The notes beneath the pieces were generated by a model. It was not told where the DNA came from. It was given only the letters and a program-made list of their open reading frames with translations, and searched no databases. Below are positions 13,294 to 25,637 of a stretch of 64,000 nucleotides of DNA, one piece after another. A program made the translations under genes and the position numbers. The stretch's first letter is position 1, and each line of letters starts with the position of its first letter. The stretch spans positions 64,001 through 128,000 of the forward strand of contig CBDEFO010000003.1 in the NCBI GenBank assembly GCA_965237525.1, read 5' to 3'. The stretch comes from Candidatus Latescibacterota bacterium (GTDB taxonomy: Bacteria > Latescibacterota > CBDEFO01).

Positions 13294-13558
13294 TTTTTTA
13301 TTCTTGTCCCTATTAAAAAACAGTTTCGCACATAACCCGTCGGGGAACTCCCAATGTAGGATAGTTCCCTACTTTGTGCCGAAACTGTCAAATTAACGCA
13401 AACAAAACAATATGTTGGTGAATTTCTAGCCGACAATTAATATGAAAATTAAGCAAAAGTCGTCTCTTCGTCAAGCTGAAAGTGCAGATAGACTTAAAAT
13501 TGGTAATACAGAACACAGACAGTTCAAACTTTAGATCTCAATACCAGCAGTCGCATTA

Positions 13559-13778
13559 TTACTGAAAATGAACGATCTTTGAGAATGACTCGGGGTCAAG
13601 TGAGGCTCCTCCTAACAGCCCGCCGTCTATATTATCCTTCTCCATCAAGTCCGATATATTATCAGGTTTGACAGAGCCGCCGTATATTATTCTCACGGAG
13701 TCGGATGTACAGCTATCGTACATGTCCAAGCAATACCTTATGCAGGAGTGCACCTCCTCGGCCTGTTGGGGCATCGCT
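13559..13778 (-). pseudogene. tpiA: Duplicated 3' fragment of tpiA
   Basis: [39 protein letters not shown], near-identical to 16946-17170. Confidence 0.9.
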
Positions 13779-14218
13779 CCCCTGTTATAATCCATCAGGG
13801 ATTCAAAGAGAATTTTCAGTAGGTGGAAAGCTTCGGCCGTTAGGTCGGAGCTTTTACATTTGGTGTTACCTATATGCTCCACCACATAAAATGCTAACTG
13901 ACAGCCGACTGGGAGACGAAATTGTTACTTGCTGCCTTGGAAAAGCTTCCGCTTTCGACAAGATCACAGAAGATCTTCAGACTCTCTGGAAGCATCTTTA
14001 GGTGCGAATTCCAATATGAAATGTACAGTGCCGTCATATTTTCATAATGAAATATTTCTATTGCATTGCGCATCTACAAGCGCGGTATAACTCGATATTC
14101 AGGCGATCACTATAAGTAAACTAAAAGGCTGTAACTCTATGTTATTACACTATTTACTCTGACGAGATATGAGGACTTTAATATGACCTTTTACGATTAG
14201 AGGTTGCTGTTCAACTGT

Positions 14219-14234
14219 TGGCACAAATGTTGCA
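14219..14234 (+). promoter_or_regulatory. Sigma-54 (-24/-12) promoter
   Basis: TGGCAC-AAATG-TTGCA with correct GG-N10-GC spacing, about 70 nt upstream of the first peptide ORF. Confidence 0.75.
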
Positions 14235-14305
14235 CTAATACTATTATGAACGGCACGAAACACAGACAATTCAAACTTTAAATCATATAAGGGAGGTGAA
14301 AGACC

Positions 14306-14401
14306 GTGAAATTACTAATGCTGATAGAAGGTATAAGTCTGATTGTGGCAGTAGCAGCGTTTGAGATGTATGCCTACAACAGCCTCGCTGCCCTGTTCTA
14401 A
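14306..14401 (+). CDS. 31-aa hydrophobic peptide, copy 1 (MKLLMLIEGISLIVAVAAFEMYAYNSLAALF)
   Basis: RBS AAGGGAGGTG 7 nt before GTG; TAA stop. Confidence 0.75.
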   Translation: MKLLMLIEGISLIVAVAAFEMYAYNSLAALF

Positions 14402-14491
14402 CCCATCAGGGTTGTAGATTGCTGAAATATTATTGAGCGGCACGAAACACAGACAATTCAACTTTAAATCATATAAGAGAGGTGAAAGACC

Positions 14492-14587
14492 GTGAAATTA
14501 CTAATGCTGATAGAAGGTATAAGTCTGATTGTGGCAGTAGCAGCGTTTGAGATGTATGCCTACAACAGCCTCGCTGCCCTGTTCTAA
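14492..14587 (+). CDS. 31-aa hydrophobic peptide, copy 2
   Basis: Identical CDS; RBS AAGAGAGGTG. Confidence 0.75.
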   Translation: MKLLMLIEGISLIVAVAAFEMYAYNSLAALF

Positions 14588-14677
14588 CCCATCAGGGTTG
14601 TAGATTGCTGAAATATTATTGAGCGGCACGAAACACAGACAATTCAACTTTAAATCATATAAGGGAGGTGAAAGACC

Positions 14678-14773
14678 GTGAAATTACTAATGCTGATAGA
14701 AGGTATAAGTCTGATTGTGGCAGTAGCAGCGTTTGAGATGTATGCCTACAACAGCCTCGCTGCCCTGTTCTAA
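14678..14773 (+). CDS. 31-aa hydrophobic peptide, copy 3
   Basis: Identical CDS; RBS AAGGGAGGTG. Confidence 0.75.
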   Translation: MKLLMLIEGISLIVAVAAFEMYAYNSLAALF

Positions 14774-14884
14774 CCGATCAGGGTTGTAGATTGCCCAATA
14801 TTATTGAGCGGCACGAAACACAGACAATTCAACTTTAAATCGTATAAGAGAGGTGAAAGACTGTGACAACTGTGACATTACTAA

Positions 14885-16403
14885 AAGCCTTGTGAAATAG
14901 TTATGTCCCAGGCAGCGTCTGAAGCGCCGATTATGGGTCAAAGAGTAGCATATCGTATCGTTTTGCTGTGGAATAAGCAAAATAGTCTTATCAGAGTTCT
15001 GGTCAGCAAGGAACAGGAGCTGTTTGAAGAACAGGATGCACTGTCTTTGACAGACAGGGCACACATAGACGCTTTCCCCCTTCTTATGAAAGATACAAGC
15101 CTCTTGAGATTCTGTACTGTTGCAACAAGATTCAACTGTTCATTCAGTGAGGCTGGTCCTCTATAACGGGCTCGTCCCATACCGTGTTGTTGCCTGGCTT
15201 CAGCAAAGATATGTTCACTGCGTTTACGGAGTCTCCGGGAGAGTTTGTAGTCAGCTGTTAATGAGATAGACCGTGCATGATTTCTGGCTTTCGCCTCTCG
15301 CACTTTTCTATCCCGTTCGGCCTGAATATGTGCTGAATTTGTCTTGTTTTTCCATGTAGGAATCGGTTCAATCTTCTCATCGGCTCGCAGAGGAATATGG
15401 GGTATGATTCCCCGGTCAAGTACATCAGCGATAAAATTACCAGAACCGTAACCGGTATCGGCACTAAGTGTCTGAATGTCTTTGGGCATGGTGTATGTTT
15501 CAAGGTCATCTACCATCTTAAGGGCACTTTCGGGCTCTGCTGTCCCTGTCGCCTGCGTGCCCTGAGTCTCAAGGATTACTCTGCTTTTTGTGTCGATCAG
15601 ATCATGGCCCATAAACGAGAGAAAAGCCCCTTTGCCCTTCGATTTGCTGTATAAGCGCGCGTCGGGGTCTGTAGTCGAACGGTGTGTTTGGTTCGTCCAC
15701 TTTTCACCATGAAAGTCTTTATCCTGAGGATGCCCGGACCTACCCTTTGTCTTATCACCTTCAAAACCGATTCCCTTGAGATAATCATCAAGAGAAACAG
15801 GGGGTTCTATCGGCTCAATACTTTTCACTGAAGCATCAGCTTGTATCTGAGTGCCGTCGACACTAAGGTGTTTACCGCTCACAAGACCGACATCTATGCA
15901 ACACTGGACTACCTGACGCATTATCCGTTCAAACAACCCACTGGATGCCCACTTGTGATTGCGAAGCTTGTTGATCGTGCTCCTATCCGGAACCGCATCA
16001 TCAAATGTCTGATGACAAAACAACCGATATGCCGCATGCATCCCCACTTCCTGACAGAGCCGATTCTCACTCAAATTATACAGATAGCCAATAAGGATCA
16101 TTCGAACAACTAATTCAGGATCAATACCGGGTCTGCCATTGTCAGGGCAATAACAATCTGATACAACGTCTCGTACAAATGAAAAATCAACTGCCTCATC
16201 AATCTGACGAAGGATATGATCCTCGGGAACTAAATCCTCCATCTGAAAATAGTGAAACATCGGATTTGTCTGTTCCTGCTTTTGTGGGGTCATTGTTTCC
16301 TCCATGTATAATATTATCAATAACATAATATAATACATCGGAGCTGCTTTATCAATGCTTGTTCTATACTACTTTCTGAATCTAAGGGTTTTTCACAAGG
16401 CTT
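14885..16403 (-). mobile_element. IS1182-family element, copy 1 (1519 bp)
   Basis: Terminal IR AAGCCTTGTGAAA / TTTCACAAGGCTT; CTAA target duplication. Confidence 0.93.
14938..16338 (-). CDS. IS1182-family transposase
   Basis: VPEDHILR..GRPGIDP (DUF772-like), SVDGT, ADTGY, EHIFAE DDE motifs; likely start ATG 16293. Confidence 0.92.
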   Translation of the reverse strand: MYYIMLLIILYMEETMTPQKQEQTNPMFHYFQMEDLVPEDHILRQIDEAVDFSFVRDVVSDCYCPDNGRPGIDPELVVRMILIGYLYNLSENRLCQEVGMHAAYRLFCHQTFDDAVPDRSTINKLRNHKWASSGLFERIMRQVVQCCIDVGLVSGKHLSVDGTQIQADASVKSIEPIEPPVSLDDYLKGIGFEGDKTKGRSGHPQDKDFHGEKWTNQTHRSTTDPDARLYSKSKGKGAFLSFMGHDLIDTKSRVILETQGTQATGTAEPESALKMVDDLETYTMPKDIQTLSADTGYGSGNFIADVLDRGIIPHIPLRADEKIEPIPTWKNKTNSAHIQAERDRKVREAKARNHARSISLTADYKLSRRLRKRSEHIFAEARQQHGMGRARYRGPASLNEQLNLVATVQNLKRLVSFIRRGKASMCALSVKDSASCSSNSSCSLLTRTLIRLFCLFHSKTIRYATL

Positions 16404-16525
16404 CTAATGCTGATAGAAGGTATAAGTCTGATTGTGTGTACATCGTGTATGGTGTATGTCAACAGCAACATCGTTGCCCTGTTTTAATCCCTCAGGGATT
16501 CAAAGAGGATTTTCAGTAGGTGGAA

Positions 16526-16553
16526 AGCTTCGGCCTTTAGGTCGGAGTTTTTA
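16526..16553 (+). terminator. Rho-independent terminator closing the peptide array
   Basis: AAGCTTCGGCC-TTTA-GGTCGGAGTTTTT; a second copy at about 13828-13855. Confidence 0.6.
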
Positions 16554-16566
16554 CATTTGGTGTTAC

Positions 16567-16931
16567 CTATATACTCCACCACAGAAAATATGGATAATCA
16601 ACAATTAGATTGTAAATGAAGCCTACCACTATTCCCAGTATCACAAAAGCCGCTACTCCCGATATGAATCCTGCGGGCTTTCCGAATCTGTTGGTGACCT
16701 TAGATACAATTTTTATCTGTCCAAGAATACTACCACTCCCGGAAGAAAGAGAAAAACCCGTTCAGAGGCTGTACACCACGGACAATTCGGTGTCTGAGGA
16801 TGGTTGATATTACAGCAAGACACTGCCCCTGACCAGAGCCAGGTGCATCCGCACCTGAAGATAAACACGCACAACGGAGTAATAAAGACTAAAGTGAAGA
16901 CACCCCAGAATAACTTTTCTATAACTGTCAT
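16567..16931 (-). pseudogene. Cys-rich membrane protein (CxxxFxCGC..CC..CPWC), frameshift near 16720
   Basis: ORF 16713..16931 continues in another frame as GQIKIVSKVTNRFGKPAGFISGVAAFVILGIVVGF..YPYFLWWSI*. Confidence 0.6.
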
Positions 16932-24118: not shown

Positions 24119-25637
24119 AAGCCTTGTGAAAAACCCTTAGATTCAGAAAATAGTATAAAACAAGCATTGATAAAGCAGCTCCGATGTATTATATTATGTT
24201 ATTGATAATATTATACATGGAGGAAACAATGACCCCACAAAAGCAGGAACAGACAAATCCGATGTTTCACTATTTTCAGATGGAGGATTTAGTTCCCGAG
24301 GATCATATCCTTCGTCAGATTGATGAGGCAGTTGATTTTTCATTTATACGAGACGTTGTATCAGATTGTTATTGCCCTGACAATGGCAGACCCGGTATTG
24401 ATCCTGAATTAGTTGTTCGAATGATCCTTATTGGCTATCTGTATAATTTGAGTGAGAATCGGCTCTGTCAGGAAGTGGGGATGCATGCGGCATATCGGTT
24501 GTTTTGTCATCAGACATTTGATGATGCGGTTCCGGATAGGAGCACGATCAACAAGCTTCGCAATCACAAGTGGGCATCCAGTGGGTTGTTTGAACGGATA
24601 ATGCGTCAGGTAGTCCAGTGTTGCATAGATGTCGGTCTTGTGAGCGGTAAACACCTTAGTGTCGACGGCACTCAGATACAAGCTGATGCTTCAGTGAAAA
24701 GTATTGAGCCGATAGAACCCCCTGTTTCTCTTGATGATTATCTCAAGGGAATCGGTTTTGAAGGTGATAAGACAAAGGGTAGGTCCGGGCATCCTCAGGA
24801 TAAAGACTTTCATGGTGAAAAGTGGACGAACCAAACACACCGTTCGACTACAGACCCCGACGCGCGCTTATACAGCAAATCGAAGGGCAAAGGGGCTTTT
24901 CTCTCGTTTATGGGCCATGATCTGATCGACACAAAAAGCAGAGTAATCCTTGAGACTCAGGGCACGCAGGCGACAGGGACAGCAGAGCCCGAAAGTGCCC
25001 TTAAGATGGTAGATGACCTTGAAACATACACCATGCCCAAAGACATTCAGACACTTAGTGCCGATACCGGTTACGGTTCTGGTAATTTTATCGCTGATGT
25101 ACTTGACCGGGGAATCATACCCCATATTCCTCTGCGAGCCGATGAGAAGATTGAACCGATTCCTACATGGAAAAACAAGACAAATTCAGCACATATTCAG
25201 GCCGAACGGGATAGAAAAGTGCGAGAGGCGAAAGCCAGAAATCATGCACGGTCTATCTCATTAACAGCTGACTACAAACTCTCCCGGAGACTCCGTAAAC
25301 GCAGTGAACATATCTTTGCTGAAGCCAGGCAACAACACGGTATGGGACGAGCCCGTTACAGAGGACCAGCCTCACTGAATGAACAGTTGAATCTTGTTGC
25401 AACAGTACAGAATCTCAAGAGGCTTGTATCTTTCATAAGAAGGGGGAAAGCGTCTATGTGTGCCCTGTCTGTCAAAGACAGTGCATCCTGTTCTTCAAAC
25501 AGCTCCTGTTCCTTGCTGACCAGAACTCTGATAAGACTATTTTGCTTATTCCACAGCAAAACGATACGATATGCTACTCTTTGACCCATAATCGGCGCTT
25601 CAGACGCTGCCTGGGACATAACTATTTCACAAGGCTT
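24119..25637 (+). mobile_element. IS1182-family element, copy 2
   Basis: Same IRs; TTAA target duplication. Confidence 0.93.
24184..25584 (+). CDS. IS1182-family transposase
   Basis: Near-identical to copy 1. Confidence 0.92.
   Translation: MYYIMLLIILYMEETMTPQKQEQTNPMFHYFQMEDLVPEDHILRQIDEAVDFSFIRDVVSDCYCPDNGRPGIDPELVVRMILIGYLYNLSENRLCQEVGMHAAYRLFCHQTFDDAVPDRSTINKLRNHKWASSGLFERIMRQVVQCCIDVGLVSGKHLSVDGTQIQADASVKSIEPIEPPVSLDDYLKGIGFEGDKTKGRSGHPQDKDFHGEKWTNQTHRSTTDPDARLYSKSKGKGAFLSFMGHDLIDTKSRVILETQGTQATGTAEPESALKMVDDLETYTMPKDIQTLSADTGYGSGNFIADVLDRGIIPHIPLRADEKIEPIPTWKNKTNSAHIQAERDRKVREAKARNHARSISLTADYKLSRRLRKRSEHIFAEARQQHGMGRARYRGPASLNEQLNLVATVQNLKRLVSFIRRGKASMCALSVKDSASCSSNSSCSLLTRTLIRLFCLFHSKTIRYATL

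Follow-up and report, generated by a model that had tools for sequence, protein, structure and literature searches.

What does a sigma-54 promoter control when the genes behind it are about 31 codons long, hydrophobic and repeated in tandem? This question is raised by positions 14219 to 16553 of a 64,000-nucleotide (nt) stretch of DNA from a Candidatus Latescibacterota bacterium, referred to here as the window, which corresponds to positions 64001-128000 of contig C3 in the source genome (G000); the genome of a congener (G001) was used for comparison. An initial annotation had described the interval as a complete, dedicated microprotein operon. This does not hold, since the fourth gene copy is broken by an insertion sequence (IS), the triplication of the first is a strain-level event, and the family is spread over four loci with differing promoter types. 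The sequences rather point to a real, genus-restricted and apparently undescribed family of hydrophobic open reading frames (ORFs) of 31-33 residues and, as the main new result, show a cassette made of leader, ribosome-binding site and ORF standing first behind four promoter-like types. As to function, we give a probability of about one half to the reading that these are signal-induced single-helix peptides of the inner membrane, made in a burst on signalling, that would damp or retune the membrane by helix packing. The tandem triplet is the least important part of the finding.

The array and its family

The main features of the interval, in window coordinates, are the following.

14219..14234, + strand: sigma-54 -24/-12 consensus promoter, TGGCAC-N5-TTGCA
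14242..14866, + strand: tandem array, period 186 bp, 3.4 copies, 97% matches
14252..14305, + strand: AU-rich conserved leader and ribosome-binding site of unit A1
14306..14401, + strand: ORF A1, 31 amino acids (aa), GTG start, single hydrophobic helix predicted
14492..14587, + strand: ORF A2, peptide identical to A1
14678..14773, + strand: ORF A3, peptide identical to A1
14863..14884, + strand: 5' part of paralog B (copy 4), ending in a CTAA target duplication
16404..16487, + strand: 3' part of paralog B, with CxxC; the G001 ortholog is intact (33 aa)
about 16519..16560, + strand: intrinsic terminator, folding on the + strand only (z -7.3 on +, +0.6 on -)

The 186-bp period and the three identical 31-codon ORFs with strong ribosome-binding sites are thus confirmed, with GTG as start codon; GGAGG or GAGAGG stands ahead of each ORF, and units A1-A3 differ by only a few bases, all outside the ORFs. 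The announced fourth copy and terminator stand in part: the CxxC-bearing 3' part and a sense-only terminator are present, but copy 4 is split by the IS.

DNA and profile searches of G000 recovered nine ORF-bearing copies at four loci, namely the window array, three copies beside a LysR gene, and two single copies, one with a HAMP kinase/sigma-54 regulator cluster ahead of it and a serpin gene behind it, the other between kdsA and the gene for a sigma factor of the extracytoplasmic function (ECF) type. G001 has five copies at the same four loci. Beyond these two genomes, no match was found in 166 other genomes of the phylum, many of them incomplete, and synteny in other genera (28 LysR-homolog, 18 kdsA and 28 ECF loci) gave no match to the family hidden Markov model (HMM; best E 0.72). 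Among the matches listed there, the LysR homologs of two other families (L058-L085) mostly face one and the same gene, which, from its start, we take to be accD (acetyl-CoA carboxylase beta).

Database searches were equally empty, with the reservation that ORFs this short often escape gene calling, so that these negatives mean "not found" and not absence. Eleven members hit no Pfam family, no PDB chain was matched, the best E-values were 0.11 in PHROGs and 0.0046 in NCBIfam (below cut-off), and Rfam gave sub-threshold matches only. A profile search of 1.84 billion representatives returned three matches, one of them a copy of the family itself and two repetitive proteins. A degenerate DNA pattern hit 24 metagenome loci, none of which encodes the peptide (best HMM E 0.53), and no viral locus; combined with a leader pattern, it retrieved two loci in genome_contigs, both from the congener. 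Phage DNA and plasmid protein searches yielded no relative. Among named Atlas clusters, YncL, YoaK and PmrR come nearest, at 0.79-0.80, a chance-level lead. Nothing on this family was found in the literature searched, most subscription papers and supplements being outside its coverage, and none of the public runs checked is listed as an RNA source for this organism. The earlier view of a sigma-54-driven microprotein gene of no recognised family is therefore backed by these empty searches, together with frame retention and promoter statistics (see below).

Coding evidence and the encoded peptide

Twelve sequences were compared, seven distinct ones from G000 (one with the IS removed) and five from G001. 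These copies, which had first been picked up by DNA similarity and not as ORFs, all retain start, open frame and stop (12/12), with TAA, TAG and TGA swapped among them and the other frames full of stops. Indels measure 3, 3 and 9 nt within ORFs, and 1-2 nt in leaders. Neutral simulations run along a fitted tree of length 1.31 retained all of start, frame and stop in 4 of 4,000 runs, and hydrophobicity as well in 1 of 4,000.

Such frame retention, far above neutral expectation, is the first argument against the RNA itself being the agent, as a set of sibling small RNAs whose ORF is incidental or merely stabilising. An own promoter and terminator, a conserved leader motif and a ratio of nonsynonymous to synonymous change per site (pN/pS) near 1 would all suit this explanation, which we nonetheless hold to be improbable. 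Conserved RNA structure was considered and rejected as weak, with a consensus fold of just -2.05 kcal/mol, an unstructured transcript (z -0.21) and no Rfam match above threshold. Constraint at synonymous sites, the other mark of an RNA-level function, looked significant at first: pS is 0.04, low relative to the higher values among five neighbour genes (0.036-0.144), but the signal vanished against 68 control genes (P 0.29 and 0.15), these being the ORFs, out of 167, retained as unique, gap-free and full-length.

The peptides (31-33 aa) have a best 19-residue hydropathy of 1.4-2.5 and are predicted to form one helix over residues 2-30 (predicted local distance difference test score 92.5). M5, L12, Y22 and L30 are invariant, position 11 is always Ser or Thr and position 26 always Ser, Asn or Gln, while position 8 is Glu in nine of the 12 and Lys in three. 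The C-terminus is Leu-Phe in 11/12, all members ending in xLF or ALL and none in a Lys or Arg; the residue at -1 is constant, and that at -2 is A, V, L, T or Q, never an aromatic. Overall, length and hydrophobicity are conserved and most residues not.

The constant N-terminus and variable C-terminus announced earlier dissolve when the six distinct paralogs are averaged, as identity is 0.55 over residues 2-15 versus 0.40 over residues 16-31 and neither half is constant. The stretch common to copies 1-3 and copy 4 is 33 nt long, identical in G000 and with three differing sites in G001, which suggests local gene conversion. Both the tandem triplet and the "variable C-terminus" are probably by-products of amplification, gene conversion and paralog divergence.

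The same data bear on the possibility of a minimal pilin, a precursor of a ribosomally synthesised and post-translationally modified peptide (RiPP) or a peptide pheromone. In type IV and Flp pilins, the leader terminates in Gly or Ala and is followed by a hydrophobic run in which Glu at +5 is invariant. The frequent Glu8, the CxxC of paralog B and a divergent ABC exporter at the window locus recall such systems. However, there is no Gly/Ala-ended leader before the hydrophobic run, Lys takes the place of Glu8 in three members, and no pilin family is matched; for a RiPP, the modest difference between halves and the invariant Tyr22 and Leu30 do not make a conserved leader and hypervariable core, and the exporter has ABC_membrane and ABC_tran domains only, with no peptidase domain. 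In addition, CxxC is restricted to B, no exporter is seen beside the other three loci, and the neighbours scanned include no recognisable gene for a modifying enzyme, a pilus or an RRNPP receptor. The pilin and RiPP candidates of the initial annotation thus fail on their defining features, and this whole group of explanations is very improbable.

A cassette behind four promoter-like types

Homology among the copies begins near the expected start site and extends roughly 10 nt beyond the stop; the copied unit is therefore a translatable cassette. No target duplication or transposase accounts for its spread. At two of the four loci, those of the ECF sigma factor and of the kinase, relatives keep the promoter without the small ORF.

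As regards the ECF locus, 29 of 30 ECF-sigma ortholog loci have TTAAAC-N17/18-GTC upstream, compared with none of 30 control windows; it is a putative ECF-sigma autopromoter, strongly conserved across Latescibacterota. This element lies 22-140 nt from the sigma gene in other genera and 180 nt from it in this genus, where the small ORF occupies the gap; only the two genomes of the genus have that ORF, the other 28 loci showing neither a counterpart preceded by a Shine-Dalgarno (SD) sequence nor an HMM match. A further good match to the same pattern is present at G000:C8:562301 (minus strand). The ECF sigma gene itself (L003:7734-8291; G000:C7:785733-786290) has an extra base near its start relative to G001 and is frameshifted in this assembly, which may be real or a sequencing error.

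At the kinase locus, the sigma-54 promoter of the HAMP kinase/response regulator pair is likewise conserved in the phylum. In 5 of the 12 regions from relatives, this promoter with TCAG-N4-CTGA sites leads directly to a long ORF whose start resembles a signal peptide (six of the remaining seven have no strict match, and one is cut by a contig end). In G000 the small ORF stands in first place, and behind it lies a 27-aa remnant that starts with MKRMLL, as does the long ORF in two relatives. The tandem TCAG-N4-CTGA palindromes (L002:8035-8075, L166, L168, L170, L174 and L175) are located upstream of the sigma-54 promoter and after a cluster of kinase, regulator, coiled-coil and beta-barrel genes; they are a candidate operator, and the exported targets differ by genus (serpins here, a SIMPL protein in L174).

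The third promoter-like type, besides that of the window, is a sigma-70-like site divergent from lysR at the LysR locus, where the search pattern was matched in G000 only. In the window and at the LysR locus alike, a terminator stands behind the ORFs and no gene follows on the same strand. This arrangement makes it very unlikely that the ORF is a leader peptide whose translation or membrane insertion gates the next gene, as could be imagined from the two other loci, where it ends 26 nt (ECF) and 17 nt (serpin) before the next start.

The ECF copy also invites comparison with microproteins that trigger proteolysis of an anti-sigma factor. By analogy with MucE and DimA, the C-terminal Leu-Phe would bind the PDZ domain of an HtrA-type protease, leading to anti-sigma cleavage, and every regulator would set off the ECF response by way of the copy it controls. 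Besides the nearly general Leu-Phe end, this fits with one copy being under the ECF autopromoter, as mucE is under AlgU (PMC3819740), with DimA being induced by a kinase/response-regulator pair and activating AlgW through its C-terminal WTF (bioRxiv 10.1101/2025.04.28.651061), and with the presence of three HtrA-type genes in the genome and of a zf-HC2 anti-sigma gene and a weakly CpxP-like gene in the ECF operon. We consider it unlikely, as AlgW and DegS recognise large aromatics at 0 and -2 (PMC8545111), and position -2 is never aromatic here; moreover, DimA has 92 aa with a periplasmic part, whereas the present peptides are one nearly tailless helix. A second ECF sigma gene, an anti-sigma-like gene and an HtrA-type protease gene form one operon at L189 (G000:C8:1729005-1732385).

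The window promoter and its palindrome

The sigma-54 promoter described earlier is indeed present in the window. Its motif occurs 20 times in the genome with the 5-nt spacer and two to five times with each of the spacers of 3, 4, 6, 7 and 8 nt, and G000 encodes rpoN and 12 sigma-54 activators. The degenerate GG-N10-GC reported at unit junctions is there as a pattern, but only the -12 TTGC is retained, probably marking the duplication breakpoint. The hairpin proposed for the unit ends is weak (z -2.2) and not kept in G001 (z -0.7).

A candidate activator site lies further upstream.

14040..14052, no strand: palindrome TTTCA-N3-TGAAA, 179 nt upstream of the -24 box; candidate sigma-54-activator site, which also fits the LysR T-N11-A box

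Five of the 13 TTTCA-N3-TGAAA sites outside the IS lie 157-179 nt upstream of a sigma-54 consensus, representing three independent promoter sequences, against a background of 0.0016 per position and strand, and three palindrome-bearing promoters of this kind are retained in G001. One such promoter is directly behind the genes for a GAF-PAS kinase and an NtrC-type sigma-54 regulator (C8:422617-424017) on contig C8, and a sister module of the window locus, also on C8, has the same arrangement of consensus and palindrome. The region bears a marginal similarity to the sequence upstream of lysR (score 40; 37 is the maximum among shuffles). Sites at G000:C8:424143, C7:22937 and C8:1539961 form a small candidate TTTCA-N3-TGAAA regulon; the C7 promoter is a duplicate carried along with a 3' fragment of the regulator gene.

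Antisense control and the toxin alternative

A type I toxin array, also suggested initially, would mean that each ORF encodes a membrane-depolarising toxin silenced by an antisense RNA not yet seen. The small size and the tandem arrangement stand, but no antitoxin signature was found in sequence-level tests, and we keep it as a possible though doubtful rival. A short hydrophobic ORF, tandem and dispersed paralogs, a narrow range and fast residue turnover fit the search criteria given in PMC2887945, and the missing basic C-terminus is shared by IbsC, ShoB and DinQ (PMC8309996). In the predicted folds, start codon and SD sequence are partly paired (SD unpaired 0.23-0.56), with a 5-bp anti-SD stem in 10 of 11 rows, and sigma-70-like sites are present on the minus strand of every unit. 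The total of such minus-strand sites, however, is 13 versus 7.6 +/- 2.6 in shuffles, no folding minimum lies over ORF or leader on either strand, and the terminator folds only in the sense direction. Outside matches to six transcripts reach no more than 14-16 nt, and the three that were inspected are in or beside unrelated genes. The peptides have no polar or charged C-terminal cluster and no homology to a known toxin family in Pfam, PDB or PHROGs, and two copies are the first cistrons of regulator-driven operons. Finally, the tandem, multi-paralog YhzE passed the same criteria and yet is described as not toxic (PMC2887945).

Insertion sequence and history of the locus

Most of the interval 14219..16553 is filled by the IS, and the promoter is preceded by a mosaic of duplicated pieces.

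14885..16403, - strand: IS1182-like element, 1,519 bp, terminal inverted repeats, 4-bp CTAA duplication; transposase ORF at 14938-16338
13500..13535, + strand: orphan copy of the family 5' leader with no ORF behind it; in G001 this leader runs directly into unit A
13550..13778, - strand: old duplicated tpiA 3'-end fragment, 89% identical to its own tpiA and 87% to that of G001, the intact genes being 94% alike there
13772..13892, + strand: duplicate of the unit B end and terminator
13894..14073, - strand: relic 5' fragment of a LysR-family regulator gene (HTH_1 match), common to the paralogous locus on C8

The tpiA fragment departs from both intact tpiA genes at sites where those two agree. 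Decayed lysR 5' fragments lie behind the terminator of the peptide genes in both genomes (L021:1690-1850; G000:C8:1826020-1826220 and 1826915-1827070).

G001 has one A unit and an intact B at this locus, without the IS and without the 13536-14270 block. Contigs of runs X6 and X7 go from A directly into B and past CTAA without the IS, and one X12 contig omits 370 nt, that is, two units; the single-A-unit arrangement is thus found in G001 and in contigs of three other studies. Unit depth is raised only in X1, a possible source sample (4.8 versus 2.1), and no sequenced piece spans the array, so that the count of three units rests on the assembly. The upstream mosaic, by contrast, is no assembly artefact, because single X4, X6 and X7 contigs carry it. 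Triplication and IS insertion are likely recent strain-level events. The sister module of G000 is flanked by two repeats, and the LysR locus of G001 is a recombinant between them, from which we infer that G001 lost both modules through recombination between repeats.

The transposase carries DUF772 and DDE domains. With these, its terminal inverted repeats and a 4-bp YTAR target duplication, the element resembles the IS1182 family, from which it differs in scoring just below the curated cut-off (NF033551, 263.9 versus 270 bits). G000 contains 131 full-length copies, 98 of them with the YTAR duplication. These copies are more than 98% identical, most of them more than 99%, and make up about 4% of the genome, another one being located in the window at 24119-25637; G001 has 15 matches, only two at 98%. 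A strong recent expansion in G000 seems probable.

Other observations in the window

At 13300-13400 (minus strand), the 5' region of the ABC exporter gene contains a very stable hairpin followed by a U-run (z -4.1 to -5.8), retained in G001 (z -4.8 to -7.5), with a sigma-70-like site upstream and no Rfam match; it is a candidate attenuator or leader. At 16567-16931 (minus strand), a gene for a Cys-rich membrane protein follows tpiA; it is frameshifted here, forms a single 126-aa ORF in G001 and has no Pfam or NCBIfam match.

Proposed function and comparison with known systems

In the single-helix reading that we prefer, the firing of any one of several signalling systems would trigger a burst of transcription, after which the peptide would be translated and inserted as a single helix into the inner membrane. 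There it may pack against itself or a partner helix and, by analogy only, damp or retune the membrane, which would make it similar in kind to YohP, YncL and TisB. The window promoter would be activated via TTTCA-N3-TGAAA, most likely by the NtrC-type regulator beside the GAF-PAS kinase on C8, with control exerted at transcription and not by antisense RNA. Repeat-mediated recombination would add or remove copies (one or three A units, a module lost twice in G001), so that dose would differ between strains.

Several points weigh against this proposal. G001 lost both modules of the window promoter type and copy B is IS-broken in G000, so copies of this promoter type are dispensable. The pN/pS between orthologs is 0.91 (12.5 nonsynonymous and 4.5 synonymous changes, 17 in all), compared with 0.28 in the 68 control genes as a whole and 0.38 when only the first 30 codons of each are counted (P 0.02 and 0.08), and residue-level selection is therefore weak; an amphipathic moment is not significant overall (permutation P 0.48). 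As to methods, the evolutionary inference rests on two genomes, the neutral simulation was run without indels and with extant sequences as root, and the palindrome was chosen post hoc from 13 candidates and also fits a LysR box.

More tentatively, the cassette may have been recruited repeatedly behind established signalling promoters, so that an ECF sigma factor, two sigma-54 two-component systems and a LysR regulator would all have one peptide as their common output. Gene copies would then form an OR-gate, possibly with one membrane target, such as the protease releasing the ECF sigma factor, and with dose set by copy number; this scheme is a good deal less probable than not.

Small membrane proteins mostly occur in single copy and lack a known function. 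The present family, a new one, is seen entering several regulons, and before and after states exist, since relatives hold these promoters but lack the ORF. An active peptide would offer a testable case of signal integration through gene duplication, as well as of a gene born or captured in a 5' untranslated region. By-products are three regulatory motifs for Latescibacterota, the ECF autopromoter and two sigma-54 activator sites.

Among known systems, the enterobacterial YohP (27 aa) and YncL (31 aa) are similar in size, in having one hydrophobic helix and no catalytic part, and in signal-induced transcription, which for the present family is a proposal (PMC12719787); YohP dimerises and lowers membrane potential (PMC12719787). 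They differ in showing no sequence homology to the present family, which is multi-copy, with four promoter types including sigma-54 and ECF, and variable in copy number between strains. With Ldr/Fst, Ibs, TisB, DinQ and ZorO (PMC2887945, PMC8309996), the family shares a length below 70 aa, one transmembrane helix, tandem duplication in one intergenic region and a patchy range, but it has neither homology to them nor a charged C-terminal cluster nor an antisense-RNA folding signal, its leader is short and unstructured, and it leads operons. Bacillus YhzE (PMC2887945) is also found as tandem and dispersed paralogs (eight per genome), a 28-aa hydrophobic peptide that looks like a toxin and was not toxic when tested; it has Gly/aromatic-rich termini, belongs to Firmicutes, shows no homology, and an antisense RNA was detected for it. 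Finally, the AlgW activators MucE and DimA of Pseudomonas are likewise microproteins that end in Phe and whose promoter is of the ECF or two-component type, but both have an aromatic at -2, and the 92-aa DimA faces the periplasm.

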